In this document: positions 1 through 39,739 of the stretch, piece by piece
Layout: each line of letters begins with the position of its first letter
Numbering within the stretch: position 1 is the stretch's first letter
Assembly (NCBI GenBank): GCA_040183005.1
Contig: JAMPIW010000007.1
Location: 983,314 to 1,047,313 of the forward strand
Reading direction: 5' to 3'
DNA: 64,000 nucleotides
From: Gammaproteobacteria bacterium
GTDB taxonomy: Bacteria; Pseudomonadota; Gammaproteobacteria; Ga0077554; Ga007554
Translations under genes and position numbers: made by a program
The notes under the pieces: generated by a model
Seen by the model: only the letters and a program-made list of their open reading frames with translations
What the model was told of the DNA's origin: nothing
Database searches by the model: none

Positions 1-332
1 GGCATCTTCGCTCCGCCCACCAGCAGTGGGATGAGTGGCTTGCCTGAGTCAAGCGCAGCCTCGATCTCCTGGCGCACAAAATCGCCTGGGTCATCCAGCC
101 GTCGCCGGCCATCCGCGTCGGCCTTCAGCCAGAAAGGTCCCATCATCACCAGCACCGCGCCCGCTTCACGCAACTGGGACTGGATGGCCTGCGCAAAATC
201 CTCGCCCGGCTGGATATCATCGACATCGCGGAACACACTGCCGACGCCGAATTCCGCCTCCAGGGCGTCGGCCAGCCGGCCTGCAAAGCCGGCACTGTCG
301 TCGCGGCGGTAAGAAAGGAAGATTCGGGCCAT
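1..332 (-). CDS. TIR-domain protein (TIR_2 type), N-terminal part only; runs off the left edge
   Basis: Not in the ORF track; translated by hand from ATG at 332: MARIFLSYRRDDSAGFAGRLADALEAEFG...VFRDVDDIQPGEDF...DPGDFVRQEIEAAL. Starts 3 bp after the patatin stop codon. Confidence 0.85.
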   Translation of the reverse strand, partial: MARIFLSYRRDDSAGFAGRLADALEAEFGVGSVFRDVDDIQPGEDFAQAIQSQLREAGAVLVMMGPFWLKADADGRRRLDDPGDFVRQEIEAALDSGKPLIPLLVGGAKM

Positions 333-335
333 GGG

Positions 336-1469
336 TCAGAAGCCCGCGAAGTGCTCTGCCTTCACTTTCTTCGCCACCGCCTGCCCCACCCGCTGCAACT
401 CGGCGATATGCGCCACGGAATCGAGCTTCTGCACGTCTTCCGGTTTGATATCCGCCAGCTCCAGGGCTGACAGTCCCTTCGGGGACAGCTCGGCGTTGTA
501 GCGCATGTAAGTAAAGAGTTTACCCGGCCCCACCGGGCCCTTCGCGCCGATCATGTTACCCACCTCCCGATCAAGCTCATCGCCGGAGAGACATTTGCCA
601 AACACACGGCAGAGCGTGTCCTGCTCGTTGAGCGCCGCGTACATCAGCGCGGAGGGAATAGAGCCTGCGTTGTAGAGCAGATTCATTTCGTTGGGATCGA
701 GGTCGGCATTGGCCTGCGGGCTGGTGCCCGTGCCGATCGACACCACCAGCATCTTGTCTTCACCGGCGGACCAACCCATCTTGTAGGGCTCCACCGTTGC
801 CATCAGGAAGGCCTGGAACGCCGGGTTGTTGTAGGTGGTGATGCCGCCATCGACAAAGACGAACTGGTATTCGTTCTGCGTACCTGGGTCGAAGGTCACA
901 ACCTCGGGTGGAAAATACACCGGTGCCGCCGTGCTTGCGCGCACCAACTGCCACAGCGGCAACTTGAGGTTGCAATCCTTCCGTTCCGGCTGGTTGTATT
1001 TAGCGTACGGATTGTTCGAAACCGGCCAGGGCGAGTCGGTGGTGGCGTTGCGCATCACCATCATCAGCACCGTCTTCAGCTTGTCGCTGCCCAGGGCCGT
1101 GTCCTTGCCGAATACCTCCTGCATTTTCGTCGCCAGCTTATCGTCTTCGAATTTGTAACGGAAGCGTTTGAGCAGGGATGCCTTGTCGAACATGTCGGTG
1201 CCGCTGCTGATGTAGAACGAGCGGATATCGGACACCTTCATGCCGAGCGAGATGCACGCCGCGATGATGGCGCCGGTGCTGGTGCCCGCGACAAAATCGA
1301 AATAATCGGCCAACACAAAATCGTCGCCGCGCCCCAGCTTCTGGCGCAGCATGTTTTCAATTTCGGCCAGCACTTCCACCGTCATCATCCCGCGTATGCC
1401 GCCGCCGTCGAGGGCGAGGATTTTCTTGGGGCCGGGGGTTTGGATGCGTTTTTTCAGTTGCTCGTTCAT
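336..1469 (-). CDS. Patatin-like phospholipase
   Basis: ALDGGGIRG oxyanion motif, GTSTG nucleophile elbow and DGG catalytic Asp are all intact; 377 aa. Confidence 0.93.
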   Translation of the reverse strand: MNEQLKKRIQTPGPKKILALDGGGIRGMMTVEVLAEIENMLRQKLGRGDDFVLADYFDFVAGTSTGAIIAACISLGMKVSDIRSFYISSGTDMFDKASLLKRFRYKFEDDKLATKMQEVFGKDTALGSDKLKTVLMMVMRNATTDSPWPVSNNPYAKYNQPERKDCNLKLPLWQLVRASTAAPVYFPPEVVTFDPGTQNEYQFVFVDGGITTYNNPAFQAFLMATVEPYKMGWSAGEDKMLVVSIGTGTSPQANADLDPNEMNLLYNAGSIPSALMYAALNEQDTLCRVFGKCLSGDELDREVGNMIGAKGPVGPGKLFTYMRYNAELSPKGLSALELADIKPEDVQKLDSVAHIAELQRVGQAVAKKVKAEHFAGF

Positions 1470-1703
1470 GGTGTTTTCCTTAAGTGTTGTCAGTTTTCTT
1501 CTGGTGAGCGGAAAGGCTGTTTAGCTCACCCCATTTGCGGTCTTGCTGGTTTGCTGCGGAACTGGCTTGTCCGGCGGAATCGGCAGGCCGGGGCACTGCT
1601 CGATGTAATTGATATCCGGAGACACCCACTCGCGCCATTCCTTCTGGCTCATGTTACGGGTGAGTTTCTTGCAAAGTTCGTCGGGCCATATCTTGGGGGC
1701 GGG

Positions 1704-3434
1704 CCACAGCCGCAGGGTCTTGTCATAGCTGCCCGAGACGATGCGCGTGCCGTCGGGGCTGAAGGCCACTCTCGACACGAGGCCCTGATGCCCCTGCAGC
1801 GGAGCGCCGATAGGCTGGCCGGTTTGCGCGTCCCACAGCCGCAGGGTCTTGTCCCCACTGCCCGAGACGATGCGTGTGCCGTCGGGGCTGAAGGCGACGC
1901 TCGACACGTAGTCCTGATGCCCCTGCAGCGGCGCGCCGATGGGCGACCCGGTTTTCGCGTACCACAGGCGCAGGGTCTTGTCCCCACTGCCCGAGACGAT
2001 GCGCGTGCCGTCGGGGCTGAAGGCCACGCTCGTCACCCACTCCTGATGCCCCTGCAGCGGCGCGCCGATGGGCTGGCCGGTTTTCGCGTCCCACAGGCGC
2101 AGGGTCTTGTCCCAACTACCGGAGACGATGCGTGTGCCGTCGGGGCTGAAGGCCACTCTCGACACGAGGCCCTGATGCCCCTGCAGCGGAGCGCCGATAG
2201 GCTGGCCGGTTTGCGCGTCCCACAGCCGCAGGGTCTTGTCCCCACTGCCCGAGACGATGCGCGTGCCGTCGGGGCTGAAGGCCACGCTCCACACCGTGTC
2301 CTGATGCCCCTGCAGCGGCGCGCCGATGGGCTGGCCGGTTTTCGCATCCCACAGGCGCAGGGTCTTGTCTTCACTGCCCGAGACGATGCGCGTGCCGTCG
2401 GGGCTGAAGGCCACGCTCCACACCGTGTCCTGATGCCCCTGCAGCGGCGCGCCGATTTGCTGGCCGGTTTTCGCATCCCACAGGCGCAGGGTCTTATCCC
2501 AACTGCCCGAGACGATGCGCGTGCCGTTGGGGCTGAAGGCCACGCTCGACACTGCGTCCTGATGCCCCTGCAGCGGCGCACCGATCGGCGATCCGGTGTT
2601 CGCGTCCCACAGGCGCAGGGTCTTGTCCCCACTGCCCGAGACGATGCGCGTGCCGTCGGGGCTGAAGGCCACGCTCGTCACCCACTCCTGATGCCCCTGC
2701 AGCGGCGCGCCGATGGGCGACCCGGTTTTCGCGTCCCACAGGCGCAGGGTCTTGTCAAAACTACCGGAGACGATGCGCGTGCCGTCGGGGCTGAAGGCCA
2801 CTCTCGACACGAGGCCCTGATGCCCCTGCAGCGGAGCGCCGATAGGCTGGCCGGTTTTCGCATCCCACAGGCGCAGGGTCTTATCCCGACTGCCCGAGAC
2901 GATGCGCGTGCCGTTGGGGCTGAAGGCCACGCTCGACACCGCGTCCTGATGCCCCTGCAGCGGCGCACCGATGGGCGATCCGGTGTTCGCGTCCCACAGG
3001 CGCAGGGTCTTATCCCGACTGCCCGAGACGATGCGCGTGCCGTTGGGGCTGAAGGCCACGCTCGACACCGCGTCCTGATGCCCCTGCAGCGGCGCACCGA
3101 TGGGCGATCCGGTGTTCGCGTCCCACAGGCGCAGGGTCTTGTCCCCACTGCCCGAGACGATGCGCGTGCCGTCGGGGCTGAAGGCCACGCTCCACACCGT
3201 GTCCTGATGCCCCCGCAGCGGCACGCCGATGGGCGACCCGCTGTTCGCGTCCCACAGGCGCAGGGTCTTTGTCCCCACTGCCCGAGACGATGCGCGTGCC
3301 GTCGGGGCTGAAGGCCACGCTCGACACCGCGTCCTGATGCCCCTGCAGGGGCGCGCCGATCGGCGACCCGGTTTTCGCGTCCCACAGGCGCAGGGTCTTG
3401 TCCCCACTGCCCGAGACGATGCGTGCGCCGTCGG
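1704..3434 (-). repeat. Near-identical 129-bp (43-aa) WD40 tandem repeat array
   Basis: Unit [43 protein letters not shown], about 13.4 copies here; the first blade begins at 5091-5140 on the other side of the IS. Confidence 0.95.
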
Positions 3435-3470
3435 TAGTTGTCAAGCTAGTTGTCGCCTGAATGCTTGAAT

Positions 3471-4550
3471 TTATGCTGCCTTTTTGAGTTCTAAATTTTC
3501 CTCCTTTGGATCGGTTTTTTCGGCGACTTGTTGATCGGGATTCAAGTGAACTACGCGGACTGGCCGCCAGTTTCGAGTAACGCCACTCCAACGCTCTGGA
3601 TGCCTTTTCTTCGCTGCTTCATAGACGTCGACGCGCTTCTGTAGCAACGCGGTGTCCAGGCCCGCATGGCGCTCTGCGGGGGTAACGAATCTGATGGCAC
3701 TGTGACGATGTTCATGGTTGTACCAATGAACAAATGTGCTGACCCACTGCCTGGCGGCAATGAGACTTTCAAACGGTCGGAAGGGATAGACTGGCCGGTA
3801 TTTCAACGTCTTGAATAGCGACTCCGAAAAAGGATTGTCATTGCTGACCGCCGGGCGACTGAACGATGGCATCACGCCCAGCGCTTGCAGGGTGGCCAGC
3901 ATCGTGGCGCCTTTCATCGGGCTGCCATTGTCAGAATGCAACACCACCTGATTCAGTGCGATGTTTTCCCGCTTGCAAATATCGCGCATAACTTCGCTTG
4001 CCAGGTCACTACTTTCTGCATCATAGATCTGCCAGCCAACGATTTTTCGGCTAAAAATATCCATGAACAAATACAGGTAAAAATAGATTCCCTTCACCTG
4101 CGTTGGCAGATAAGTGATGTCCCAGCTAAATAACGCATTGGGCGCCGTTGCACAGAGCGCACGCGGCTTGTGGCGCTGTTGCGCGGGTCGTTCTGCGCCA
4201 CGATGCCTGAGCTGATGTGCTTCTCTCAGAGCGCGGTAAATGGTTGACTCAGAAGCGATATATTGCCCACGGTCGGCCAGCCGAGGAACGATTTGACCTG
4301 GCGGAAGATCCCCAAATTCGTCTGAATTCACGACTGCCAGCAGGCGCTCGCGTTCCGGCACACTGAGCTTGTTTTTGGGTGCCTGCAACCGCATGGGTCG
4401 CTGATCGCCGCGTAATGGGTCGAGCTGCCAGCGTTGCAAAGTGCGTTCGCTGAGAGAGATCGCCGCACAGGCGCGATCCTGGTGCGCACCCGCAGCGATT
4501 GCTTCCGCCACCAGTGTCATGACTTGGCCGCGCTCTGCGAGGGAGGTCAT
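3471..4550 (-). CDS. IS3-family transposase OrfB (DDE/rve core)
   Basis: [22 protein letters not shown] and WYNxEHRHSAI motifs; overlaps the orfA stop (ATGA). Confidence 0.92.
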
Positions 4551-5032
4551 TTGACCTCGTCCTCCCAGAGCGCGCGGAACTTTTTTTGCAGGATCAGCAA
4601 GGCTGCCGCCTCCGCCAATGCCTTCTCTTTGCGCACTAACTCACGCTTGAGTTTCTCATTTTCATCTTTCAATGTCCGAAATTCACGGATGCCTTGCACC
4701 GCTTTCACCTCGGTACAAAAAGCCGTTTTCCAGCTTGCCAGATGATGGGCAAATAAACCTTTTTCACGACACCACGCATGCAAGGTCTCGCCTGACAAGC
4801 CATGGGTTTCATGCAATGCCACCAGCTGCTCCTCCGCGCTCCAGTCCTGGGGCCGTTTCTCTTTTGTCACCGATATACTGAGCTTGCCCATCGATTTCCT
4901 TTTCATCCAATTCTTTAACGTATGGAAACTAACGTTCAGGTCTTCCGCCACCGACCGGATTGTCCGATCTCCACGAGAAAATACCTTGACCAGCGCTTGT
5001 TCTATAAATGCCCCAGAATACGTTATTTTCAT
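4547..5032 (-). CDS. IS3-family transposase OrfA (HTH)
   Basis: HTH-like N-terminus; A7G slippery motif (minus strand, about 4580-4587) near the 3' end, typical of -1 programmed frameshifting in the IS3 family. Confidence 0.88.
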   Translation of the reverse strand: MKITYSGAFIEQALVKVFSRGDRTIRSVAEDLNVSFHTLKNWMKRKSMGKLSISVTKEKRPQDWSAEEQLVALHETHGLSGETLHAWCREKGLFAHHLASWKTAFCTEVKAVQGIREFRTLKDENEKLKRELVRKEKALAEAAALLILQKKFRALWEDEVK

Positions 5033-6172
5033 CGTTGCCTCTATTTTAGAAAATTAAAATTTAGAGGCGACAACTAGCCTGACACAGGGGGCCGTCGGGG
5101 CTGACGGCGACTGCTAAGACTCGAGAATCCGCATCAATGACCTTCAACAAATGTGAGTGGCCAAATAGTGAGACACCTATTGTATTCTCGATCTCGCTAT
5201 GCGGCGCAATCCGGTGTGCTGCAAGCAGTTTCAACAATCCGAGCACCGTGCCACCTGGGCGTGCGCCCGACAGCATGGCTTGCGCTTCAGCATTAAGCTG
5301 CAGCGCTGTTGCCTGCTTGGATTCCTGATCCGCTTTCCAGGCGAGCCACACAGCCAGGAATGCAACCGCGATAGCCGCGAAAAGCAGGTATCTTAATAGT
5401 TTGCGGCTTTTTTTAAGCCTCGCGGCATCGGCCTGTGCCTGCTCAGTGGCACGCTTCTGTTCGGCCGTGAGTGCTTCTGCGGCAGCCTGCTTCTCCCGTG
5501 CGGCATCGAGTTCCGCCTGACGCCGGCGTTCTTCTTCCACCTGCTTTTGTGTCTCTCTCTGGCGCGAAGCCAACATGAACTCGCTGACGGGTTCAAGTCG
5601 TCTACGATAGGCAGGTCTGGCGGCGAGCGCCTCGGCGATGGCCAGCCGTTCACCCACCATCAGCCAGGGGTCCTTGCGGCCGTTCTTCTCCCAGTCTTGC
5701 GCAGCCTGTTCAACTGCATCGGCGACCTTCAGGTCTTCGCGCTCGGCGTGCAGCCAGTTGGCGAGTACGTCCCAGCGGCGCAACAGCGCTTCATGGGCTA
5801 CCTCGACGATTTTCTCGCCTTCGCGCTGGTCGGTGAGCAGCAGTCGTTTATCCGCCAGGGCATCAATGAGCTTATGGCTCTCGGGTGGTAGATCGGACAG
5901 CCGCGCTGTGCGGCGCATGGGCTCGTCGTTTTGCGGATTGATCGTGGCGAGCCAGGGAATGAAGGCGGCCCGCAGAGTTTCCAGTTGGGTCTGACGCTCG
6001 GCCGGGTCGCGGGCGAGCACGGACTCCGCTTCATCGTTCACCACGCTGCGCATGCCGCCCATGACGTCGTATTCGTCGAGGCGCAGGTCGCCGTCGCGTA
6101 AGCGTCCAGCCGTCCCACCTGTTTTTATAGTTACCCTTGCGCCACCCTGTGGTTTTCACAGGAGAGCGGCAC

Positions 6173-6490
6173 ATGAATATGAAATCGTTGGAGGCAAGTC
6201 GCCACTACTGGCAGCAGCACGTCGCGGCCTGGCGGTGTAGTGGCCTGAAGCAGATTGATTATTGCAGGCAGCATGGACTGGTGCCGAAGCAGCTTCGCTA
6301 CCGGATCGCCAAAGACCGTCGAAACGACGTTTGCGTGAGCGGCACGGATGCGGTCACGCTGGTGCCCGTGCAGATCGAGGAGGTCAACGGTGCTGGGTTG
6401 GTGTTGCAGAACGCGGGGGGGTGGCAGCTCACGCTGCCGTCCGGTGTTTCGGCAAGCTGGCTGGCAACCTTGCTGCGGGGCTTGTCATGA
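6173..6490 (+). CDS. tnpA: IS66 accessory protein TnpA
   Basis: WQQHVAAWRCSGLKQIDYCRQHGL HTH pattern; RBS GGAGAG before ATG 6173. Confidence 0.85.
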   Translation: MNMKSLEASRHYWQQHVAAWRCSGLKQIDYCRQHGLVPKQLRYRIAKDRRNDVCVSGTDAVTLVPVQIEEVNGAGLVLQNAGGWQLTLPSGVSASWLATLLRGLS

Positions 6491-6828
6491 TTGCGCAGCC
6501 GCATACGATCTGGGTGGCGGTCGCGCCGATGGACATGCGGGTGGGCATCGATGGTCTGTCGCTGCGGGTGCAGCAGGCGCTGGGCAAGGCCCCCTGCGAT
6601 GGCTCGGCCTATGTGTTTCGTAACCGTCGCGGTGATCGGCTCAAGGTGTTGCTGTGGGATGGCAATGGCGTGTGGTTGTGCCAGCGCCGGTTGCATCGGG
6701 GGCGCTTCGTCTGGCCGCAGGCGGACAGTCCGGTCTGGTCATTGGAACTTGCCCAATGGCAGTGGCTGATTGCTGGTGTCGACTGGCAGCGGATGTCGGC
6801 CCAACCGGCGGCCGACTGGCGTTTGTGA
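6487..6828 (+). CDS. tnpB: IS66 accessory protein TnpB
   Basis: PMDMRVGIDGL, YVFRNRRGDRLKVLLWDGNGVWLCQRRL motifs; ATGA overlap with tnpA. Confidence 0.92.
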   Translation: MIAQPHTIWVAVAPMDMRVGIDGLSLRVQQALGKAPCDGSAYVFRNRRGDRLKVLLWDGNGVWLCQRRLHRGRFVWPQADSPVWSLELAQWQWLIAGVDWQRMSAQPAADWRL

Positions 6829-6910
6829 CGATTGAAGCCGCCATGAAAAATGGTGAATAAAAACCTGTATTTATGCGGCTTTCTGCGGTGTTTCATGGTA
6901 TAATTTTGTC

Positions 6911-9964: not shown

Positions 9965-9986
9965 CACCCCGAATACCATCGGGGTG
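9965..9986. other. 8-bp stem hairpin between the GH13 gene and the TIR-nSTAND1 gene
   Basis: CACCCCGA-ATACCA-TCGGGGTG; no clear U-tract, so function is unknown. Confidence 0.3.
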
Positions 9987-10017
9987 CGCTCCCTTCCATA
10001 GTGGAAATTGCCTGCCG

Positions 10018-11949: not shown

Positions 11950-12002
11950 GATGTAGACCTCCTGTCTGTCTGATTGATCAGGCCGAAATCGGCCCCCTGC
12001 AT

Positions 12003-12206
12003 TTATCCTTCTTGATCCAATGCGGCAAGTTGCTCCTCGAACCAGCCGATCCAGTCCTGATGATTGGGCGGCAGTCGGCTGCTGGCGCAGCAGACTTTCG
12101 AGTTCGGCCAGCACTTCCACCGTCATCATGCCGCGTATGCCGCCGCCGAGGGCGAGGACTTTCTTGGGGCCGGGGCTTGGATGCGGGCTATGAGTTGTTC
12201 GTTCAT
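12003..12206 (-). pseudogene. Deletion scar: 5' end of a second patatin gene fused to the 3' end of a TPR gene
   Basis: 12206-12079 reads MNEQLIARIQAP/GPKKVLAL-GGGIRGMMTVEVLAELE (paralog of 1469-1350, with 1-bp and 3-bp deletions). 12078-12003 reads RLPPNHQDWIGWFEEQLAALDQEG* (paralog of the end of 13515-15473). Confidence 0.88.
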
Positions 12207-12225
12207 GATTTCCACTCCATGTTGC

Positions 12226-15473: not shown

Positions 15474-15500
15474 TCACAACCCCTTGATAGTTTCTGTGGC

Positions 15501-20592: not shown

Positions 20593-20802
20593 TGAGTATC
20601 CTCTGTTTTTGTTGGGGCGGTTATTGGTGCTTGGTTATCACCACAATACATGAAGCATTGGGGTAGGTCATGCAATCTACCCACGCCTGCCCAGAAACTA
20701 ATTACTCGAATTAGCCGCCTTGCCTACCAACTCCTTCTCTCAGATGCTACGACATTTGTGGTCGCGGGGCACCCGACAAGATTCGTCCCATGATTGATCA
20801 AG

Positions 20803-23800
20803 CTATTGATCAGGCTTCTGTCGAGTCGGCTTCTTCCGCCCACCCTTGCCAGTACCCCCTCCTTTCGATTTCGACTGCAGCGCCTGGACTGCGGCCGTGG
20901 GTTTCGGCTCATCCTCTCCCGTCAGCCCCTTCAGAATCGCTTTGATCGTTTCGACAGTAACGCCATCACCGCCAAGCCTTTCTAACATCTGCCTAATAAA
21001 CTTCAACTGGCTCACCACCGAGTCCTGTTCGCGCGGCGTGGCCTGGACAGCGGTGAACACCTCGCGATAACGGGCGATGATGCTATCTACGGCGTCGGCC
21101 TTCAGCCCACCCTGCATCAGGCGGCGAGCAATGTCGGCATCCGGCAAGGCGACGGCGTCCCACAGTGTGCGCGAGGTGGCGTAACGCTCGACGGCGGCCG
21201 CTTCGCAGCGCGTAAACCACGACTCGGCATGGGGCAGCTTGTGACCCAGCAGCGCCTCGAGGGTGATCCAGTTGAGGGCGTGATAAGGGTCAAGCTGGGC
21301 ACCAGTCTCGGCCGCCTCATGGTAATAATGGGCTGCTTGTTTCAGGGCCTTGAGCATGTGTTTGCTCTCAGTGTCGACCTGAGCGAGACGCTTGTAGGCA
21401 CTGCCCAACAGGGCCAGACGCTCGCGGGTCTTGCCCAACGCGATGAGATGACCGAGGCGCTCGATGGCACTGTGAATCATGGCAATGTCATTGGTTTTTT
21501 GCCCGAATCGCGCCTCGAGGTTAGCAAGTTGTTCGGCGGCCGAGATGTCTACGTCGCTATCCGTCTCATCTGCAGCCAGGGCACCCCGATAGTAGTCGAT
21601 AGCGGTTTTGAATTCGCCCAGCTCGCTGTAGGCACGTGCGAACCGGTACAGCAGTGCACCTTGTGTTTGCCATGCGGCCGGGCAATCTTTTTGTAATGCC
21701 GTGAGCCGCGCATTCAAATCCTTTTTCTTCTCTTCGATCTCCTGAGGCGTAAAGATGTTGTCATTTGAAAGGTCTTGTGTCTCGATCCATATCGACCCCA
21801 ACTCATAGAGCACCTCCTCCACTGACGCATACTGCCGTGCCCGAGACGTGGTGCTAGTGTCATCAGTGGTATTCAGGCGGAAATCGGGATCGCCGTAGGC
21901 CTGGTAGGCGCCCCAGGTATTGCAGTCGCGGAACTGCGTCCAGGTTTCGGTGCGTGCTTGTTGCAACGCAGCGCCGAAGGTCGCGCCATCGAGCATGGCG
22001 GTGTAAAAGACCTTGGCAAAACTGTTCGCCGCATCGTCACGCACCGCCCAGCCGGCCGCAACCACGGCACGCACACCCATTTCAATGAGCTCGCGCGAGA
22101 TGCTGGCGGCGAGTTTGTTATAGGCGACCGACGGGCTGTCTTTGGCCTCGGGCCCGATTTGTCCGAGATGGCAGCAGTTAACAAACACCAGGTCGGGGAC
22201 ATGGCGCATCTTGGCAATTTCCACCGCGGTGAGATACAGGCCGCCTTCCAGCACCATGCCGCTGCGTGCCTTTCCATCTAGCGTCGGTGTGGCCTCGTAG
22301 TAGCCGTGACCGGCCAAATGCAGCACACGATAAGGCTGGGCGTAGAGCCGGTTGAATACGTCGAGGCCACCGGGGCGCTCGGGGTTGTGCTCCACCGCAA
22401 ATCCCTTGTGCGCCAGCAAGGAGGCGACGAGCTTCGCCTCCGCGCGTGCGCCCGGTAACGACGGGATGGTGTCTGAGGTGACGGGATCGCCGACGACGTA
22501 GGCCGAGTTGGAGGTGGCGGCGCGAATCTGGGTACGAAAATTCGCCGTTTCCAGTTGCCGTACGAAACCCAGTTTCACGCACAGCGGCTCCACATCATCG
22601 ACCATCAGCTCCCAAGGGTAGTTGGCGGTCTCGGCGTCGACCTCGAGCACCAGACGGGTAATCTGTCCGATACCGTCCTTGAGTTCGTTGGGCAGCAGCA
22701 GCTCCCACAAGGTGCGCGCGATACCGGCGCGGAATTGACTGTCGCGCCTGGAGAGTTGCACATATTTTTCTATAAGTTCGGGCTGGAGTTGCTGTACGCG
22801 TACTTCGGTGCGGGCCCGGTCTGCAATGGCAACGTAACGCAAGGCGCGAGGTGGTTCCGCGCGATTCTGCGCATCGTCAAAGGCGCAGTCCAGCACGGCG
22901 CGCCAGGTCGCCGGATCGACCTGACTGGCATCGGCAAGACTGGCCTTGAGATGCACGGCCACCGCCTTGGGTAATAGAGGCAGGGGCGTTCTGGCATGTG
23001 TGGCGGCTACTGCTGTGACTGCCCAGCGGCGCCACTGGCCTGGCGTGGGCATTTGCGAACGCCGCAAGCGACCGTTACGGCCAATGACAAGCTCCGGCTG
23101 CGCGTCGATATGCACTTCCAATGACTGGGCGATCGCGGGCGCCAGCTTGCAGGCGGCATGCGCCGCTTGTGTCGCCGCGTCACTGAACAGCTCGATGATT
23201 TCGAGGCGGTGAATGCGAACAGGGATATGGGCCCGTTCCATTTCTGCGTTTGCCTGGGCAACCGCACGCATCAGGGTGGCGACCGAGTCTTCCACGGTGA
23301 TGGCCGCCGCCGAATTGGCCCCAATCAACAGGGCACTCAGGCCGATCGTTTGGATGCCTGTTGCATCTGCACTGCGAGGTCTGTTGTCACAGGTTTGCAG
23401 TGCGTACTGCAATGCCCCTTCACGCACCGCGTTTGCCAGCGTACCTGTGCCTAGATCACCCATGCGCCCGAGGCCGATCACGATGGCGCCGCGCGGAATG
23501 CCCAGGCGCATGTCCAGCTCGCTCGGCGGGCGCCGCACGATAGCGGTTGTCCCCGGCGCCCCAGGATAGACGCCAAGCTGATAACGTTGCGATAGGGCAT
23601 GGCCGAGTTGGCGGTCCAGATGGGCCTCGGCAGCGGTGATGGTATCGCCGAGGTAATGGCCGACCATGACAGGGTAACTGGCATAGCGCAGATCGCCATG
23701 CACCACGCAGACGCTGAGGCTTACCGGCTCACGCCGCCGGTAGGCGCGAACGGGCTTGCCCATGAACCCGGCAATGAGTTCACCGCGCGTGGGATAGAGC

Positions 23801-26469
23801 ACTGGCTGCGGCACATAAGGCAACACCATCGTCTCACCGCGCGCCAGACTGGGTGGCGTGGTCGGCAAGGCCGTGGTCTTGCCTTGTTCAAGCAGCTCGA
23901 GGAGCGCCGGGAACGCCGGTTTGTAATCGGCGAGTTCACCGTGTTCAGCGGGCATGTACCACGTCGCGACGCCAGGGAGTTTTCCTGCCTCGTACGTGAC
24001 GCGCCCATCGCCTGCATCGGTAGCGGACAGGACAATCCGGTCCCACTTGTCGATGTCTGCGCCACAGGGCGTCATGGGTGCGCTGCCCGCCACATAGACC
24101 ACGCGGTCAGGATGAGGGATATTCACTGGCAGCGTGGCCACGGCATCCTGTGCATCCGTCAGCAACTTTGCCGCAGGCACGGCCCCACCATTTTCGTTGC
24201 TCTTCTTGAGCGCTTGCCACGCCTTCTCGGTGTACCAATCGAACGCCGCGCCCTCGCCTGGCTGAGGCAGCAGTTCCAATGCGCCCTGGAAACCACCAAT
24301 GATGTCCACTACCCCCTGGAGGTCGTGCGCCAGATCAAGCAACGCAAGCTGGCGCACAGTTGATGCAGCCCCAAGCAAGGTCTCGACCATGGAATAAGAG
24401 CCGCGATTCGGCGTACCCAGCATAACGAAACGGCTACCCGGATGAGCACAGATCTGCTCCCACACGTCCGCATGGTCAGCAATGAAGCGGCGCACCACCA
24501 GACCGCCCATGCCGTGTGCGATGAAGCGCACCGGCTGGGAAGTGCGCTCGAGCACCTTGCCGACCTCTTGACCCAGGTCGGCAGCGGCCTCGCGGATGGA
24601 CTTGCGCCAATCGTAGGCGAAGGGCAACACCTCATGGGAGTCAGCAAGGTACTTACACAGACTGTCATAGTACTCACCCAGCAAACCAGTGGCCTTGACG
24701 TTGCTGTCGTGAATGTCCTTGATCTTCGCTAACCCACCCATCATCAGATTCGGGAAATCCAGCCAGATGCACTCGCCCTTACGCTCTAGCTGTGACCCCA
24801 TGATCCCTGGCAGCACAAACACCACCGGCTGTGGCACGCCCGCGCGGGTCTGTAACGCGCGCAGCATGGGCACCGGCTCAATATGCGCGCGCTCGAATGC
24901 TGTGAATCCCTGCGGGAACTGTCCGGCAGGCGCCAGCAACCACTGGGCGAGCTTGATGCGCGTGCGCGCGTTCTTGAAATAGTTGAAGTGGCTGACGTCC
25001 GCCCCCTGGTCGAAGATGTAATACTCCTGCGCGCGCTGCGCACCGTAGAACATCGAGTCGGTGTTGACCACGAGATCGTTATCGCGCTTCTCATAGATAA
25101 AGCGGTCGGTGATGAACACGGCCATGCGCTTGAACCAGTTGCCGCCCTCGATATCGCCGGCGATCACGCCCAGTTCTCCCCCCGATGCGGCGGCAGAATT
25201 CAGCAAGGCCACTAATGGTGACTCCGGCATCATCGCCTCGATGCCCGGAATCAGCGCCGGGTCGGTGCGGTCCCGCACTACCTGCAAGGTCACGCGCTTG
25301 ATGACTTCGTAAATGGGCGATTGACCGACTACCGGAATGAAGCCAATGAGATTGGTCAGCAGCGAAAGAAATTCGTCGATGTTGTCTGAGGCAAGCAGCG
25401 TGCCGCGCGCCGGGGAGGCCACGCGCGCAATGCGCATCATACGCAGACGCTTCTGTTGTAACAGGTCGCGCAGGCGTTTGAGCTGCTTCTTGTCATGTCG
25501 GTCGGCCTCACCGAGCGCCGAAGCGGGGCGTTGAAAACGATCGATATGGGCGTCGTCCAAATCGGGCACGCCAAGGCAGACCAAATCGCCCACCTGGCCG
25601 CCACGCGAATGGGTGACCAGAGAGATCTGCGCCCCTTCCGGCAAGCACTCGACGAGAGCAACGGCATTATCGATGGGGCTCTCACTCATGGTGCGGTGCT
25701 CGAAGGCATAAATATGCTCGCCGAACGTAGCCCGCAATGTGCGCCATTCCTGGCTGGCATCACCTTCACAAAAGGCCCCGAAGCTGCCGAGGGTGCGCGA
25801 GGCCGTGCCATGGATGAACACCAGGATGGGTTTGTCCTTGGGCAGATCGTTCGCATTCAGTGATGCGGCCTGGCTGAGGTCCAACGGCGCACCGGCGTCC
25901 ACCGCGGCCCAGCGGTATAGCCCGGGGGCGGGCGTGAGGCGTTTTTCGATCAGATACATGAGCAGCTTGGCGGTGGCCCAGGCACCGGCCTTTTCCACCT
26001 GCTCAAGCGCGAGATCCTTGACACAATCCGCCCAGTTTTTGGGATCCTTTAGCTGCTCGACGAGGTCATCGCCCTTGAGGCGCAACACCCGCAGTGCGCC
26101 GGCGAACCAATCCTTTACGCCGCGTTCCGCAACACTGGGGCCCGGCAAGCCCGTCAGTTCCAGGCCGCGCTCGGTGATAGCCTCAGGATGCCAGAGCGCC
26201 ACACGTTCCTGATATCGCTTTGCCGAGGTCCACAGGGTCAACCCGCCCTCAACCTCAATCTCGAGGATGTCATCATCCTCCACCTCCACCACCCGGGCTG
26301 GCGCGCCTTTGGCCGCCGCTCGGGCCGGTGGGGAGAGGTCAAAGGCATGCACCACCTCGATGTTGTTCAGCAGGTCGGTGGTGGGTGGCACCTCCGCTGT
26401 GCCGCGCAGCCCCACGCGAAAGGGCTCCAGTGGCTCGTCTCGCCCCGGGATGATGAGTTGGATGGTCAT
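20803..26469 (-). CDS. 1888-aa protein: alpha/beta-hydrolase (lipase) - second degenerate hydrolase - linker domain - CHAT caspase-like protease - TPR
   Basis: FIHGT...VTHSRGG (Ser nucleophile); LPGIMGS...IAHGMGG (Ser replaced by Gly); VLHLAGHG and VFVNCCHLG (CHAT His/Cys dyad); C-terminal TPR-like helices. Confidence 0.88.
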   Translation of the reverse strand: MTIQLIIPGRDEPLEPFRVGLRGTAEVPPTTDLLNNIEVVHAFDLSPPARAAAKGAPARVVEVEDDDILEIEVEGGLTLWTSAKRYQERVALWHPEAITERGLELTGLPGPSVAERGVKDWFAGALRVLRLKGDDLVEQLKDPKNWADCVKDLALEQVEKAGAWATAKLLMYLIEKRLTPAPGLYRWAAVDAGAPLDLSQAASLNANDLPKDKPILVFIHGTASRTLGSFGAFCEGDASQEWRTLRATFGEHIYAFEHRTMSESPIDNAVALVECLPEGAQISLVTHSRGGQVGDLVCLGVPDLDDAHIDRFQRPASALGEADRHDKKQLKRLRDLLQQKRLRMMRIARVASPARGTLLASDNIDEFLSLLTNLIGFIPVVGQSPIYEVIKRVTLQVVRDRTDPALIPGIEAMMPESPLVALLNSAAASGGELGVIAGDIEGGNWFKRMAVFITDRFIYEKRDNDLVVNTDSMFYGAQRAQEYYIFDQGADVSHFNYFKNARTRIKLAQWLLAPAGQFPQGFTAFERAHIEPVPMLRALQTRAGVPQPVVFVLPGIMGSQLERKGECIWLDFPNLMMGGLAKIKDIHDSNVKATGLLGEYYDSLCKYLADSHEVLPFAYDWRKSIREAAADLGQEVGKVLERTSQPVRFIAHGMGGLVVRRFIADHADVWEQICAHPGSRFVMLGTPNRGSYSMVETLLGAASTVRQLALLDLAHDLQGVVDIIGGFQGALELLPQPGEGAAFDWYTEKAWQALKKSNENGGAVPAAKLLTDAQDAVATLPVNIPHPDRVVYVAGSAPMTPCGADIDKWDRIVLSATDAGDGRVTYEAGKLPGVATWYMPAEHGELADYKPAFPALLELLEQGKTTALPTTPPSLARGETMVLPYVPQPVLYPTRGELIAGFMGKPVRAYRRREPVSLSVCVVHGDLRYASYPVMVGHYLGDTITAAEAHLDRQLGHALSQRYQLGVYPGAPGTTAIVRRPPSELDMRLGIPRGAIVIGLGRMGDLGTGTLANAVREGALQYALQTCDNRPRSADATGIQTIGLSALLIGANSAAAITVEDSVATLMRAVAQANAEMERAHIPVRIHRLEIIELFSDAATQAAHAACKLAPAIAQSLEVHIDAQPELVIGRNGRLRRSQMPTPGQWRRWAVTAVAATHARTPLPLLPKAVAVHLKASLADASQVDPATWRAVLDCAFDDAQNRAEPPRALRYVAIADRARTEVRVQQLQPELIEKYVQLSRRDSQFRAGIARTLWELLLPNELKDGIGQITRLVLEVDAETANYPWELMVDDVEPLCVKLGFVRQLETANFRTQIRAATSNSAYVVGDPVTSDTIPSLPGARAEAKLVASLLAHKGFAVEHNPERPGGLDVFNRLYAQPYRVLHLAGHGYYEATPTLDGKARSGMVLEGGLYLTAVEIAKMRHVPDLVFVNCCHLGQIGPEAKDSPSVAYNKLAASISRELIEMGVRAVVAAGWAVRDDAANSFAKVFYTAMLDGATFGAALQQARTETWTQFRDCNTWGAYQAYGDPDFRLNTTDDTSTTSRARQYASVEEVLYELGSIWIETQDLSNDNIFTPQEIEEKKKDLNARLTALQKDCPAAWQTQGALLYRFARAYSELGEFKTAIDYYRGALAADETDSDVDISAAEQLANLEARFGQKTNDIAMIHSAIERLGHLIALGKTRERLALLGSAYKRLAQVDTESKHMLKALKQAAHYYHEAAETGAQLDPYHALNWITLEALLGHKLPHAESWFTRCEAAAVERYATSRTLWDAVALPDADIARRLMQGGLKADAVDSIIARYREVFTAVQATPREQDSVVSQLKFIRQMLERLGGDGVTVETIKAILKGLTGEDEPKPTAAVQALQSKSKGGGTGKGGRKKPTRQKPDQ

Positions 26470-26555
26470 TGCGTCCTCTCCCTCTGTGCGCCTCAGGCGC
26501 GTTATTGTTGTACCCCCCTGCCCGCGCGGCCACTCGGCGAGCTTTCAGCCATTGC

Positions 26556-27401
26556 TCATGGCATGGGCGTGAGGAACGGCCGATCGAACTGATCCTTGCG
26601 CCCTTCGAGTTGCGGGGTCTGGTCATAATCGCCCTGCTTGAGGTTGGCCAGTGTCTTGCTGTGCAGCTCGCGATAGCTGAGTTTACCCTTGGCTTCGTTG
26701 ATTGCTGCAACGAGATTGTAGGTCAACGCGCCGTTATAACTGTTGCCGATATAGGCGTCGGCCGAAGTCTGGGTATCACGGCAGCCGGTGACGAGCAGCT
26801 CGGGGATATCAGCCACTACCACATCGCTCTTTTTGCGTTTCGCCCGTGGGGAGGCACGCAGTTCACCACGCAACTTGCCACGCAGTTTGCGACCGGACTC
26901 CTCGGCCATCATGTCCCAGGGATTGGGCAGATAACGCGGGATTATCGGCGCGTCCGGCGGCAGGAAGGCACGGGTGTTGGTGCCTGAGTGGCAACAGTCC
27001 ATGATGACGGTCAGGCTCACGCCCGCGCGCAGCTTGTCGAAGGTAGTTCGCAACCAGTCGTCCCTGAGCGGGTCCTTCCAGTCGAGATCCGTCGGGCACA
27101 GGATCTCGTCACGGTGATCGGCCTCGTCGCCATCATCGTCCGGCACGTTGGCGCCGTGACCGGAGTAATGCAACAACACCACATCACCCGCGCGCGCCTT
27201 ACTCACCAAATCGACGATGGCCGCCTGCATCGCCTTCTTGGTCGCCGCCAAATCGGTAAGCACAGCGATGTCGCCCGCCTTGAAACCGTAATACTTGGTG
27301 AGTACACCTTTCATGTTCTTCACGTCATTGACACAGCCCCGCAGATCCGCGCCGGGGATACTGTAACGATTGATGCCGATTAACACTGCGCGTTTGGTCA
27401 T
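26556..27401 (-). CDS. Metacaspase / caspase-family peptidase C14
   Basis: LRGCVND, HYSGHG (catalytic His), DEADHRDEILCPTD, MDCCHSG (catalytic Cys); ATGA overlap with the upstream NLR stop codon. Confidence 0.94.
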   Translation of the reverse strand: MTKRAVLIGINRYSIPGADLRGCVNDVKNMKGVLTKYYGFKAGDIAVLTDLAATKKAMQAAIVDLVSKARAGDVVLLHYSGHGANVPDDDGDEADHRDEILCPTDLDWKDPLRDDWLRTTFDKLRAGVSLTVIMDCCHSGTNTRAFLPPDAPIIPRYLPNPWDMMAEESGRKLRGKLRGELRASPRAKRKKSDVVVADIPELLVTGCRDTQTSADAYIGNSYNGALTYNLVAAINEAKGKLSYRELHSKTLANLKQGDYDQTPQLEGRKDQFDRPFLTPMP

Positions 27402-30361
27402 GGCTTGTTCCTTAGTTGGGTGGTTGTGGGTGAGTCGGTTTGTGATACTGTAATTTCCTCTGTCGCTATTTCTCCAAGACTATCTCGTATTTGGCGCTGA
27501 TTTGCGCTGAGGGTTTCGGGGGCACTGTCCATCAGCCAGGCGAGATGCTCATGTGCCAGGAGAGCGGCCTGATCGTGCAGACCTGCCTGCCTCAACGTCA
27601 GTAAATGATTCCACGCCGCGGCCGTTGTATCCGGGTGCTTCTCGCCCAGCACCCGGCGACGAACCTCCAGCACCTTTTCTTCAAGCACACGGGCGCCCGC
27701 CAGGTCACCCTGATCCCTAAGTGTGAGGGCCAGGTTATTCATGCTGGTCAGTGTGTTTGGATGCTCCTCGCCCAGCATCCGGCTGAGAACTGCCAACACC
27801 TTTCCCTGAAGCGCACGGGCACCCGCCAAGTCGCCCTGGTTCCCGCGTGTGCTGGCCAGATTGTTCATGCTGATCAGTGTGTCTGGGTGCTCCTCGCCCA
27901 GCACTCGGCAGCGAACCACCAGCACCTTTTCCTCAAGTGCACGAGCACCCGCCAGATCACCCTGGTTGAAAAGTATGCTGGCCAGGTTGCTCATGCTCGC
28001 CAGCGTGCCAGGGCCTTCCTCGCCCAACACCCTGTGGCTAACCTCCAGCACCTCTTCCCCAAGCGCACAAGCACCCGCCAGATCACCCTGGTTGAAAAGT
28101 ATGGTGGCCAGGTTGCTCATGCTCACCAGCGTGTCCGGGTGTTCCTCGCCCAGCACCCGGCGGCTAACCGCCAATACCTCTTCCTCAAGCACACGGGCGC
28201 CCATCAGATTACCCTGGTTGAAAAGTGTGCTGACCAGGTTGCTCATGCTCGCCAGCGTGTCCGGGTGTTCCCCGCCCAGCACCCGGCGGCCAACCGCCAA
28301 CATCTCTTCCTCAAGCACACGGGCGCCCTCCAGATCACCCTGGTTGAAAAGTGTGATGGCCAGGTTGCTCATGCTCGCCAGCGTGTCCGGGTGTTCCTCG
28401 CCCAGCACCCGGCGGCTAACCTCCAACACCTCTTCCTCAAGCGTACGGGCACCCTCCAGATCGCCCTGGTTCCAAAGTGTGCTGGCCAGGCTGTTCATGC
28501 TCGCCAGCGTGTCCGGGTGTTCCTCGCCCAGCACCCGGCGGTTAACCTCCAACACCCCTTCCTCAAGCGCACGGGTGCCCGTCAGCACCATTCCCAGAAA
28601 CGCACGGGCGGCGGCACGCTCCCTGCGCACGGGGTCATAACGCGCAACCCAAGTGCAAAGCTCAATAGTCGCAAGATCGTCATACGTGCCCACAACGAGG
28701 CTGCTGGCATGCTCAATCCAGTGCGCCAGCGCCGCATGGTTACGAATATCGTCGGCGTGCTCGGCAAGTTCGTCCGTGAGCGCCCGCTTGGCAGCCACGC
28801 ACAGGGCGATACTGCGATCGGAGTTAGCACCGTGAAAACGCATCGTGCGGGTTACCAGGACATGCACAGTCACCGAGAAATCGGTATCGCCGGTGGCCTC
28901 AGCCAGGGATTGTTCCTGGGCCTCGTGCAGGGCGAGGTCGGCGCGGTCTAGCGCATCCGAATCACTCAAGCCATCGGCAACTGCAAATACCCGAGCGACT
29001 AGGCGCCTGGGGATGGGCGCGATGGCCAGCACAGCGGCCAGGCGCAGAAAGTTGCGCGTCTCTTCGCTCACGGCGGCGATGCTCTGCAGCAGCATAGTGG
29101 CGATGCTGGCTTCGTGACCGTTGGGCAACTGGCCAGAGAAGTGCTTCGCCAACTCCAAGGCATCTTTGTCTGGATGACGAAGATCGTTGAGAAACTCGAG
29201 ATAGGGTTTGCTTTTGAGGCGTGCCGCCGTCACATCCACGGCCAGGGCGTGATAGCCCAGCTCGCGGAGGATCTCAGCCACTGCGGCGGCCTCGGCTTCA
29301 TCGGCGGGCGGGCGTTGCTGGGTGAGCAGGCTGCGTGCTTCGGCCTCAGCCAGCACGCCCACCTCCACCCTGCCACCCAACGCTTGGTATTCGTGGCTGC
29401 GAGTGGTGAGCAGGGTCTTGCCATGGGCATGGGGGGCGACCCAGCCGCGCAAATCCTGTATCGGAACATCCGCTGGCACGTCGTCGATCACCCAGAGGAA
29501 GGGCTGGTTTTTGTCTGCGAAATGTTTGTGCAACTCCCCTTCGATCTGCACCTGGGATTTATCCTTGATCTCTATGCCCAACCAGGCAGCCACGTTACGC
29601 CACTGCTGCTCGCGCTGTTGGTTGAGCGTATCTGCCGTAACGCCATTTTCGCCAGCGGTGCGCGCACTGAGCCAGAACACACCACCGGGATACGCGGCGC
29701 CATAACGCAAGGCGTACTCCTCCGCCAGCAGCGACTTGCCCATGCCACCGCCACCCACGAGCTGCGCCAAGGCCGTGCCCAGTTTGAGCTGGCCGATGAC
29801 GGTCTGGCCGCACCAGAGTTGATCGTGCATCTGCCACATGTGCCGCAACCGCCCGACAAAACGCGCCGAGCCGGTGGCGGTGTAGGGAAACCAGGAGGGG
29901 ATAACAAGCGGGCGGATATCACCGAGGGTGCCCGTCAGCCCCTGCACTTGCGCTGCGATGCGCTTGGCGAGGTCGTCATAGCCGACGCGATCATCCATGG
30001 CAGGTGCGCTGAGGTATTGCTGATCTTTCAGCTCAGGCAGGGCAATGTGGTCCGGGCTGGTTTCGGGATTGACGATAAGCACCCGCTGGCGTGGATCACC
30101 GGCTTGCTGCGCGGCCAGGTAGGCAGCGGTGAGCTCCCATTGGCAGGGGCGGGAGAGCGGATAGTGCTTCGAGTACCAGGCGAGCACCGCCTTGCTGTGC
30201 GCGAGGCCTTCTGTGATCGCGCGGGTGATGGCGGCATAGTCCGCGATGTCGGCACGGTCGAGCCAAACGCTGAGCCCCTGCGCGCGCAAGGCCTCTACGA
30301 GCAAGTCCACGCGTGGCATGTCGAGGCGGCGGTAGCTGATAAACACGTCGTATTCGGTCAT
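27398..30361 (-). CDS. TIR-NB-ARC (STAND)-TPR NLR-like protein, intact, 987 aa
   Basis: YDVFISYRR...SRPCQWE TIR; Walker A GGGGMGKS; Walker B LWVIDDVP; about eight 42-aa EEHPDTL-type TPRs. Confidence 0.92.
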   Translation of the reverse strand: MTEYDVFISYRRLDMPRVDLLVEALRAQGLSVWLDRADIADYAAITRAITEGLAHSKAVLAWYSKHYPLSRPCQWELTAAYLAAQQAGDPRQRVLIVNPETSPDHIALPELKDQQYLSAPAMDDRVGYDDLAKRIAAQVQGLTGTLGDIRPLVIPSWFPYTATGSARFVGRLRHMWQMHDQLWCGQTVIGQLKLGTALAQLVGGGGMGKSLLAEEYALRYGAAYPGGVFWLSARTAGENGVTADTLNQQREQQWRNVAAWLGIEIKDKSQVQIEGELHKHFADKNQPFLWVIDDVPADVPIQDLRGWVAPHAHGKTLLTTRSHEYQALGGRVEVGVLAEAEARSLLTQQRPPADEAEAAAVAEILRELGYHALAVDVTAARLKSKPYLEFLNDLRHPDKDALELAKHFSGQLPNGHEASIATMLLQSIAAVSEETRNFLRLAAVLAIAPIPRRLVARVFAVADGLSDSDALDRADLALHEAQEQSLAEATGDTDFSVTVHVLVTRTMRFHGANSDRSIALCVAAKRALTDELAEHADDIRNHAALAHWIEHASSLVVGTYDDLATIELCTWVARYDPVRRERAAARAFLGMVLTGTRALEEGVLEVNRRVLGEEHPDTLASMNSLASTLWNQGDLEGARTLEEEVLEVSRRVLGEEHPDTLASMSNLAITLFNQGDLEGARVLEEEMLAVGRRVLGGEHPDTLASMSNLVSTLFNQGNLMGARVLEEEVLAVSRRVLGEEHPDTLVSMSNLATILFNQGDLAGACALGEEVLEVSHRVLGEEGPGTLASMSNLASILFNQGDLAGARALEEKVLVVRCRVLGEEHPDTLISMNNLASTRGNQGDLAGARALQGKVLAVLSRMLGEEHPNTLTSMNNLALTLRDQGDLAGARVLEEKVLEVRRRVLGEKHPDTTAAAWNHLLTLRQAGLHDQAALLAHEHLAWLMDSAPETLSANQRQIRDSLGEIATEEITVSQTDSPTTTQLRNKP
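27590..28575 (-). repeat. About eight 126-bp (42-aa) TPR repeats
   Basis: Unit GDLxGARxLEEEVLxVSRRVLGEEHPDTLASMSNLAxxLFNQ. Confidence 0.9.
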
Positions 30362-39723: not shown

Positions 39724-39739
39724 ATAAATAAATTACATT

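Follow-up and report, generated by a model that had tools for sequence, protein, structure and literature searches.

A Horizontally Acquired Island, Probably of Defense Type, Carries a Conserved Metacaspase/CHAT-TPR-S Protein Pair beside Thoeris-like and NLR-like Genes

In type VIII Thoeris, a TIR protein (ThsB) works with the "CMP hydrolase and TPR" effector ThsI, which is activated by canonical cyclic ADP-ribose (cADPR); the TPR region of ThsI was tied by its authors to the TPR that Aravind's group predicted for TIR signaling, and the verified ThsI proteins are IMG 2658136732 and Ga0265295_1000171125 (bioRxiv 10.64898/2025.12.03.692087). In type IV Thoeris, a two-gene operon, the TIR signal is N7-cADPR and activates ThsE (IMG 2600496627), a promiscuous Arg-specific caspase-like protease; the same report describes a type III-B CRISPR system in which a SAVED-CHAT protease processes PCaspase (bioRxiv 10.1101/2024.10.24.620036). 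A further protease, LcCaspase, unlocks the alpha/beta-hydrolase zymogen LcHydrolase at R|G sites (bioRxiv 10.1101/2025.11.14.688446), and combinations of nSTAND1, TIR, DRHyd, and caspase domains have been listed by Kaur et al. 2020/2021 (PMC7159879, PMC8195603). Here, we compare these systems with an island in a 64,000-nucleotide stretch of a gammaproteobacterial genome (the window, C9:983314-1047313 of a 3.33-Mb, nine-contig genome whose host comes from a biofilter metagenome). Within this island, the gene for a metacaspase is followed by the gene for a giant protein with lipase-like, CHAT, and TPR-S domains.

We consider it fairly probable that the 34.3-kb region is a horizontally acquired conflict (defense-type) island composed of separable modules, and not one machine. 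Module 1 would consist of a stand-alone Arg/Lys-type metacaspase and then the giant, which combines two lipase-like hydrolases, a middle domain, CHAT, and a TPR-S sensor. Module 2 would provide Thoeris-like signaling through membrane-anchored TIRs, a ThsI-like DRHyd-TPR-S-SLOG protein, a DUF4062-TPR protein, and TIR/patatin pairs. Module 3 would comprise three autonomous NLR-like STANDs with a TIR or TIR-like N-terminal effector and WD40 or TPR sensors, one of which was killed by two insertion sequences (IS), IS66 and IS3. As an island, the region is an ordinary defense island; the metacaspase/giant pair with its link to ThsI-like and TIR genes would be a variation on known kinds of system. 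An earlier annotation made from the nucleotide sequence (the original prediction) had listed the gene classes involved, all of which are present according to Pfam, and had recognized no named system. The latter point agrees with our searches, in which PADLOC 2.0, a release that predates type VIII Thoeris, gave domain-level hits only and no named system among the island proteins, and no NCBIfam defense-system model reached its cut-off, FxSxx_TPR being the sole family above it.

The pair was traced through other genomes with the metacaspase, whose family has 3957 protein homologs (68-90% identical across phyla) and matches 401 stretches in a collection with one genome per species. Of these 401, the best 80, with metacaspase identities of 68-88%, were surveyed as loci from Nitrospirota, beta-, gamma-, and delta-proteobacteria, NC10, Rokubacteria, Verrucomicrobiota, and Binatia. 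A tblastn search with every island protein placed a giant homolog immediately downstream of the caspase in 59 of the 80 loci, spanning Nitrospirota, the three proteobacterial groups, NC10, Rokubacteria, and Verrucomicrobiota. In 28 loci, the DRHyd-TPR-S protein was encoded nearby, frequently with 70-84% identity; TIR was found in 11 loci, patatin in 5, nSTAND1 in 2, and TIR-NB-ARC in 1. Iterated hidden Markov model searches were carried out on the 36 complete loci, which have 10 kb on both sides of the metacaspase. Here, CHAT was found in 33 loci, the second lipase-like domain in 28, TPR-S in 25, TIR in 13, DRHyd and SLOG in 12 each, and patatin in 3. Because CHAT occurs in 33 complete loci as opposed to 5 for nSTAND1 and 1 for NB-ARC, the conserved unit is the metacaspase and giant protein pair, and TIR and DRHyd-TPR-S-SLOG are frequent accessories. 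The two accessories also go together, with DRHyd in 8 of 13 TIR loci versus 4 of 23 TIR-less loci (Fisher p 0.011).

The surroundings of the pair are varied. It stands alone in L007 and beside chemotaxis genes in L092, where DUF4062-TPR follows it, and these contexts are unrelated; in L008, DRHyd-TPR-S is immediately upstream of it. An NLR between DRHyd-TPR-S and the caspase was seen in the closest clade only (L005/L091, L011/L090). The post-caspase partner is itself modular, with forms of ∼1850 aa, ∼1000 aa (middle domain-CHAT-TPR-S, lipase-free), and ∼1050 aa (lipase 2 only), and in L061 and L072 a patatin takes the partner's position right after the caspase. Taken together, relatives of the metacaspase, giant, DRHyd-TPR-S-SLOG protein, TIR, patatin, DUF4062-TPR, and 546-aa open reading frame (ORF) that are 40-90% identical adjoin the same metacaspase family elsewhere. 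This recurrence of the same gene families in other phyla upholds the view of the original prediction that the region is an immune-type (conflict) island. Its second proposal, that of an integrated locus, survives in part: several genes do travel together elsewhere, but a single system of NLRs and effectors is not supported.

Two further gene types were seen in the surveyed loci. Stand-alone SLOG proteins of ∼200 aa, 65-71% identical to the C-terminal domain of the island's 662-aa protein, are encoded ∼840 bp upstream of the caspase in L009, L044, L053, L067, L077, and L089. Genes for DUF4231/SLATT_3 membrane effectors recur near the metacaspase family in eight loci (L036:9321-9965 and seven others); effectors of this class belong to type VII Thoeris.

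The island was acquired horizontally, because the metacaspase was not found in any of the 40 relatives searched and its nearest relatives, at 88-90% identity, come from lineages that are unrelated. Its limits were set by blastn against four congeners (G001-G004) with an empty site, in which the sequence at window -8650..-3646 joins that from window 30626 onward directly. The island therefore occupies window -3645..30625 (34,271 bp), and the empty site is precise: the junction holds ∼7 bp (TAATTTT or similar) in three of the four congeners and 233 bp of other sequence in the fourth. The GC content is 0.614 for the island and 0.560 for the genome. A present/absent polymorphism at a fixed site together with this atypical composition makes the region a genomic island. 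As the original prediction had anticipated, it overshoots the left edge of the window, by 3.6 kb that contain the rest of TIRb, a second TIR gene, and the 546-aa ORF. At the island ends, a tRNA, an att-type repeat, and an integrase were all looked for and none was found, and the metacaspase had no match at E 1e-30 in a plasmid collection.

The two proteins of the pair were then characterized by motif and profile. The catalytic dyad of the metacaspase, His82/Cys137, is invariant among homologs, and its basic linker (KLRGKLRGELRASPRAKRKK) is conserved. Since its profile matches the plant, yeast, and trypanosome metacaspases metacaspase-4, Mca1, and MCA2 in the PDB (1e-43 to 1e-30), we place it in the Arg/Lys-specific branch by sequence. 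It is a stand-alone enzyme, with the C14 domain covering residues 3-267 of 281. The giant has the order N-domain, lipase-like 1, lipase-like 2, middle domain, CHAT protease, TPR-S, and tail; lipase-like 1 carries THSRGG, and CHAT has an intact dyad (HLAGHG and NCCH). Pfam at E up to 5 gave nothing usable for the N-domain, middle domain, or tail. The profile of the middle domain (window 22720-23829, residues 881-1250) found only 3jru, a leucyl aminopeptidase macro-fold N-domain, in the PDB, and we do not claim a macro domain from this single weak match (E 0.09), which gives no more than a faint hint of a macro-like pocket. A literature search on TPR-S, DUF7379, PF20308, and PF24096 found nothing; TPR-S is said to go back, most likely, to Burroughs et al. 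2015.

By analogy with type IV Thoeris, SAVED-CHAT/PCaspase, and LcCaspase, we propose that ligand binding by the TPR-S domain of the giant would switch on its CHAT protease. The ligand would most likely be an ADP-ribose-type nucleotide made by a TIR after infection, because in ThsI it is TPR-S that putatively reads cADPR and because TIR, DRHyd, SLOG, and SLATT recur nearby. CHAT would then cut the pro-metacaspase in its basic linker, or the giant's own linkers. The freed metacaspase would degrade proteins after Arg and the lipase module would attack membranes, so that the infected cell would die. We infer the ligand, the order of cleavage, and the anti-phage role from precedent only. If correct, such a cascade from TPR-S through CHAT and metacaspase to lipase would join Thoeris signaling, caspase-like executioners, and protease-unlocked zymogens in one module, and would extend the known effector range of TIR signaling.

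Each of the precedents shares part of this arrangement. As in type IV Thoeris, TIR enzymes lie beside a caspase-family protease, here of the Arg/Lys-specific (metacaspase) type; in contrast to type IV, the fixed partner of the metacaspase is the CHAT-TPR-S giant (33/36) and not a TIR (13/36 within 10 kb), and the gene directly upstream of the island metacaspase encodes an NLR with a TIR domain and not ThsB. A sensor-coupled CHAT protease with a separate caspase-like candidate substrate recalls SAVED-CHAT and PCaspase, but the island sensor is TPR-S and not SAVED, there is no CRISPR context, and CHAT is fused to two lipase-like domains. Finally, as with LcCaspase and LcHydrolase, a caspase-family protease adjoins lipase-like alpha/beta-hydrolases, the adjacency holds in the 59 loci above, and cutting after Arg is plausible. 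The island hydrolases differ in that they are of the DUF7379/LCAT type and reside inside a 1888-aa fusion carrying its own CHAT.

Module 2 contains a protein built like the type VIII Thoeris effector. The start of the 662-aa protein was set at 17489, as homologs begin at residue 18 of the longer ORF. Its family, which carries the NCBI name DUF4071/TRAFs-binding, is highly conserved, with 77-91% identity among the best 120 matches. An AlphaFold2 (AF2) model (predicted local distance difference test score, pLDDT, 84) contains an N-domain and a C-domain that are both Rossmann-like, with a TPR solenoid between them. In a profile search of the PDB, the best 11 matches of the N-domain were all Rcl/DNPH1 proteins of the DRHyd superfamily, at weak E values of 0.13-0.64; its ...ADLVVAD...YELG motif aligns with Rcl/DNPH1 and the YELG Glu is kept. 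A Foldseek search with the whole model was swamped by TPR proteins, and the C-domain was instead refolded alone. The resulting model (pLDDT 85) matched YpsA 2nx2 (E 3.9e-5, template modeling score 0.56-0.60), DprA, ShosA, and LOG, which identifies the modeled C-terminal domain as a SLOG fold and bears out a domain named in the original prediction. A sequence profile of the same domain found nothing in the PDB.

Compared by domain build, the 662-aa protein has the DRHyd and TPR-S arrangement reported for ThsI, and TIR genes are nearby on the same strand, the two co-occurring across loci as described above. The differences from type VIII are an extra C-terminal YpsA-like SLOG domain, a DUF4062-TPR gene between the 662-aa gene and TIR-DUF4190 that puts the TIR two genes downstream, the membrane anchoring of the island TIRs, and the presence of a second TPR-S protein, the giant.

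Five TIR_2 domains and two TIR-like DUF4062 domains were detected by Pfam, in addition to three STAND/NLR-like genes. All five TIR_2 domains retain the Glu of the WxxxE motif (...DFVRQE in TIRb and ...DFVRME in the TIR_2-DUF4190 protein). The latter is a candidate signal-making TIR; a copy that is 80-86% identical adjoins DRHyd-TPR-S and the caspase in L010. The nearest NCBIfam model to the island TIRs is type III ThcB4, far under its cut-off, and Pfam at E up to 5 gave nothing usable for the TIR C-terminal domains. The 342-aa TIR protein has a second alpha/beta domain (...SALFEAGYALALG...) with a motif resembling nucleoside deoxyribosyltransferase, a resemblance without database support. For the 546-aa ORF, no match was found in Pfam (E up to 5), NCBIfam, or the PDB; L019 and L080 encode relatives that are 40% identical, a few kb at most from a member of the same metacaspase family.

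The patatin, separated from TIRb by 3 bp, has intact motifs (GGGIRG, GTSTG, and DGG). Its catalytic dyad and its best PADLOC and NCBIfam matches recall the CBASS phospholipase effector CapV, but it scores only 125.7 bits against the NCBIfam CBASS_lipase cut-off of 200 and its neighbors are TIR genes. A CBASS reading of the patatin was rejected, as no CD-NTase was present among the island proteins scanned with Pfam. A patatin remnant noticed in the original prediction is real: the frameshifted segment 12206-12079 shares 69-79% identity with the N-terminus of the patatin (79% over 34 aa by tblastn), and it is joined to what is left of a DUF4062-TPR paralog, 21 aa from the C-terminus (12077-12015, 76% over 21 aa by tblastn). 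Judging from these remnants, a second TIR-then-patatin pair was once present at the scar, 12015-12206. At L092:16694-18963, a DUF4062-TPR copy that is 83% identical to the one at window 13515-15473 and comes after the giant protein precedes a 90-aa fragment, which shares 71% identity with the N-terminus of the island's GH13 glycosidase. GH13 thus seems to travel with the DUF4062-TPR block. Its nearest solved structures are Anoxybacillus amylase and CGTases, and its start was corrected from 12129 to 11949.

Several observations weigh against the modular interpretation and its proposed cascade. In 14 of the 36 complete loci, the pair occurs without TIR, DRHyd, or SLOG within 10 kb; its TPR-S may sense a non-TIR product, or the TIR gene may sit elsewhere in those genomes. 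The DRHyd assignment draws on weak sequence matches (E 0.13) and a Rossmann-like model, which suggest it tentatively. The elbow of the second lipase-like domain (window 24508-24525, residues 649-654) reads AHGMGG in the window, L005, L090, L091, and L092 and AHSMGG in all other giant homologs, a Ser to Gly change limited to the window's closest clade, in which this domain has lost its nucleophile Ser. Across loci L010-L089, identities are 68-88% for the metacaspase (median 73%) and 33-82% for the giant partner (median 39%), with no correlation between them (Spearman 0.04, 39 loci). Such a pattern would be odd for an obligate enzyme-substrate pair and suggests that cassettes were shuffled or that constraint is very unequal. 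An NLR gene directly upstream of the caspase is seen in the closest clade (window, L011/L090, L005/L091), and the ATGA overlap of the two genes in the window would fit a functional link. Lastly, the pair was absent from the defense-system catalogues searched, and no experimental report of it was found in the literature.

The NLR link is central to the alternative that comes nearest to the original prediction, namely one integrated multi-sensor system in which the three NLRs detect different invaders and switch on a shared effector pool (the metacaspase, the CHAT-lipase giant, the patatin, and DRHyd-TPR-S-SLOG) through their TIR domains or by direct contact. The layout on which that prediction relied was seen again in the ORF listing and with Pfam: the window genes are co-directional with short gaps, and the TIR-NB-ARC-TPR gene overlaps that of the metacaspase at ATGA. 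In addition, L011/L090 show the same succession of NLR, caspase, giant, and TIR-nSTAND1 remnant, L005/L091 show a related one, and the TIR domains of the NLRs keep the catalytic Glu and could signal to TPR-S and SLOG domains. We nevertheless judge such a system unlikely. The overlap, which the original prediction took as coupling, is not conserved, since L090 has a 52-bp gap and L005 a 246-bp gap; NB-ARC and nSTAND1 are rare in the complete loci and 14 of these carry the pair without any TIR, DRHyd, or SLOG; and one NLR was destroyed by two IS while the rest of the locus stayed intact. A shared adaptor is also missing, since Pfam found no EAD or Death-like domain on the metacaspase, which is all C14, or on the NLR N-termini. 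For the same reason, the EAD-coupled system of Kaur et al., with NLR-caspase adaptor coupling, was rejected, even though the island contains the STAND clade and effector set of these authors (nSTAND1, TIR_2, caspase, and CHAT).

The build of the NLRs themselves is instead consistent with autonomy, as postulated for module 3. They look self-contained because each has its own N-terminal TIR or TIR-like domain, with effector domain, NTPase, and repeat sensor in one chain. This is the plan of Avs/AVAST, bNACHT, and the TIR/STAND proteins of Kaur et al., although PADLOC gave no Avs match for the three island STANDs, only TIR-domain hits, and the island differs from NLR-like STAND systems in being without EAD or Death-like adaptors and in having near-identical repeats, as in fungal HET-E/NWD receptors. 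Walker A is intact in all three (GPSGTGKS in nSTAND1, GMGGIGKT in DUF4062-NB-ARC, and GGGGMGKS in TIR-NB-ARC). In L011/L090, a copy of TIR-NB-ARC-TPR that is 76% identical but frameshifted is located upstream of the caspase. With its TPR half, the island protein exceeds the NCBIfam FxSxx_TPR cut-off (336.6 vs 300), a match that probably reflects shared TPR_10/12 repeats only.

The WD40 array of the nSTAND1 gene has ∼14 near-identical 43-aa units with 88-94% DNA identity, and DUF4062-NB-ARC-DUF7779-TPR has 9 near-identical 42-aa TPR units. Within each array, WD40 (129-nt; window 1650-3431) and TPR (126-nt; 17742-18800) units are 88-100% identical in DNA, a pattern known from fungal HET-E/NWD-type NLRs, and short-read unitigs break throughout. 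When both IS and one copy of each target duplication are removed, a continuous TIR-nSTAND1-coiled-coil-hydrophobic-WD40 frame results. The IS3-family element occurs at least six times in the genome, with one copy that is 100% identical and with target duplications at every copy; the IS66-family element has full-length copies on C3 and C4 at 99.15% identity, each with its own 8-bp duplication. Most genomic IS66-family copies differ in a 46-bp segment (query 1380-1425), and a full-length alignment was obtained only for C3 and C4. An extra A at 3268-3270 additionally shifts the WD40 frame (GACAAAGAC vs GACAAGAC in six other units) and may be real or an error, as the unitigs of the source run do not cover this position. 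The DUF4062-NB-ARC-TPR gene is split at 18656/18670 by one extra G at 18709, which is probably a long-read assembly error inside the repeat array, since a 93-nt short-read unitig of the source metagenome is without that G. The depth of this unitig is twice that of the genome, which is the expectation if two repeat units are identical. Without the extra G, a 949-aa frame is open, and the gene is probably intact.

A more specific form of signaling between modules is also conceivable, in which the NLR-like and stand-alone TIR proteins all feed one nucleotide-signal network and the TPR-S and SLOG domains of shared effectors read its messengers. We give this a small chance only. If true, the TIR domains would make ADP-ribose-type messengers once different invaders had been sensed, the effectors would be the ThsI-like hydrolase and the lipase-like/CHAT giant firing the metacaspase, and the island would be the first hybrid from NLR to Thoeris with a proteolytic cascade. 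It would then be a bacterial counterpart of the plant route from TIR-NLR through a small molecule and the lipase-like receptor EDS1 to cell death. The island combines several TIRs with two TPR-S proteins, one SLOG domain, and three NLRs, which makes it a natural test set for cross-talk between NLRs and Thoeris effectors.

It is similarly improbable, in our estimate, that the locus is not antiviral at all and serves as a programmed-cell-death, kin-discrimination, or stress module of biofilm bacteria, in which the metacaspase and CHAT execute altruistic lysis and hypervariable NLRs tell self from non-self like fungal HET-E/NWD proteins. The biofilter host, homologs from Nitrospira, Burkholderiales, and other biofilm or floc communities, the near-identical WD40 and TPR units, and the many loci in which the pair has no TIR gene would suit such a role, and Kaur et al. 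2020 (PMC7159879) link systems of this kind to a multicellular habit. Yet among analogues that have been tested, the closest (Thoeris IV and VIII, protease-zymogen modules, and Avs) are all anti-phage, and defense islands typically show a patchy distribution, horizontal acquisition, and decay through IS. That the island was acquired once and is now a largely non-functional remnant, its organization reflecting history only, is very improbable: the two IS and extra base in one NLR, the patatin/TPR scar, and the lost lipase 2 Ser speak of decay, but ten large island ORFs are open with intact catalytic or Walker motifs, the Ser to Gly change is common to a whole clade of otherwise conserved proteins, and the second "frameshift" (18709) is probably an assembly error.

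The features of the island are collected in Table 1.

Table 1. Features of the island in window coordinates; negative positions lie to the left of the window start
Feature	Position	Strand	Evidence or remark
546-aa ORF, leftmost island gene	window -3373 to -1733 (L004:6627-8267)	+	
TIR gene, 342 aa	window -1704 to -676 (L004:8296-9324)		between TIRb and 546-aa ORF
TIRb, 327 aa, TIR_2-TM-C-terminal domain	1..332 (5' part; gene reaches window -651)	-	Pfam TIR_2 3.3e-15; full gene L004:9349-10332
Patatin-like phospholipase	336..1469	-	Pfam Patatin 1.2e-25; PADLOC phospholipase effector 6.5e-46
3' part of broken TIR-nSTAND1-WD40 gene	1521..3431	-	Pfam WD40 1.8e-163, 12 stretches
IS3-family element, 1660 bp	3432..5091	-	Pfam rve and HTH_Tnp_1; 4-bp target duplication CCGT
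Middle part of broken NLR: nSTAND1 C-terminal part, coiled coil, hydrophobic segment	5096..6097	-	Pfam nSTAND1 profile 253-378, 8.7e-23
IS66-family element, 2469 bp	6098..8566	+	Pfam DDE_Tnp_IS66 2.1e-97; 8-bp target duplication GCCGTCGC
5' part of broken NLR: TIR_2 and nSTAND1 N-terminal part	8575..9931	-	Pfam TIR_2 2.4e-13; nSTAND1 profile 1-239, 1.4e-46
GH13 alpha-amylase-family glycosidase	10018..11949	-	Pfam Alpha-amylase 2.5e-43
Deletion scar, patatin and DUF4062-TPR remnants	12015..12206	-	tblastn
TIR_2-DUF4190 (membrane)-C-terminal domain protein, TIRb paralog	12226..13395	-	Pfam TIR_2 5.3e-10, DUF4190 1.4e-8
DUF4062 (TIR-like)-coiled coil-TPR protein	13515..15473	-	Pfam DUF4062 1.5e-20 and TPR families
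662-aa DRHyd-TPR-S-SLOG protein	15501..17489	-	Pfam TPR-S 8.6e-17 and MAP3K_TRAF_bd
DUF4062-NB-ARC-DUF7779-TPR NLR-like gene	17742..20592	-	Pfam
1888-aa giant protein, DUF7379 x2/LCAT-CHAT-TPR-S	20803..26469	-	Pfam DUF7379 6.3e-31, LCAT 8.8e-8, CHAT 5e-33, TPR-S 6.3e-15
Metacaspase, 281 aa	26556..27401	-	Pfam Peptidase_C14 2.5e-33
TIR_2-NB-ARC-TPR_10/12 NLR-like protein, 987 aa, intact	27398..30361	-	Pfam
Island right end	30362..30625	.	congener-shared sequence resumes at 30626 (blastn, four congeners)

Promoter and terminator scans of the island gave results at chance level only, and none of the RNA runs contained the locus. The genes to its left are ordinary and encode a MobB-like P-loop protein, an ABC exporter, a hydrolase, a porin, and CysS. 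To its right, window 36600-56600 holds a flagellar export/chemotaxis cluster (FlhA, FlhB, FlhF, a MinD-like protein, CheA, CheB, CheW, and MotB), whose GC content of 0.47-0.54 is well under the 0.61 of the island.

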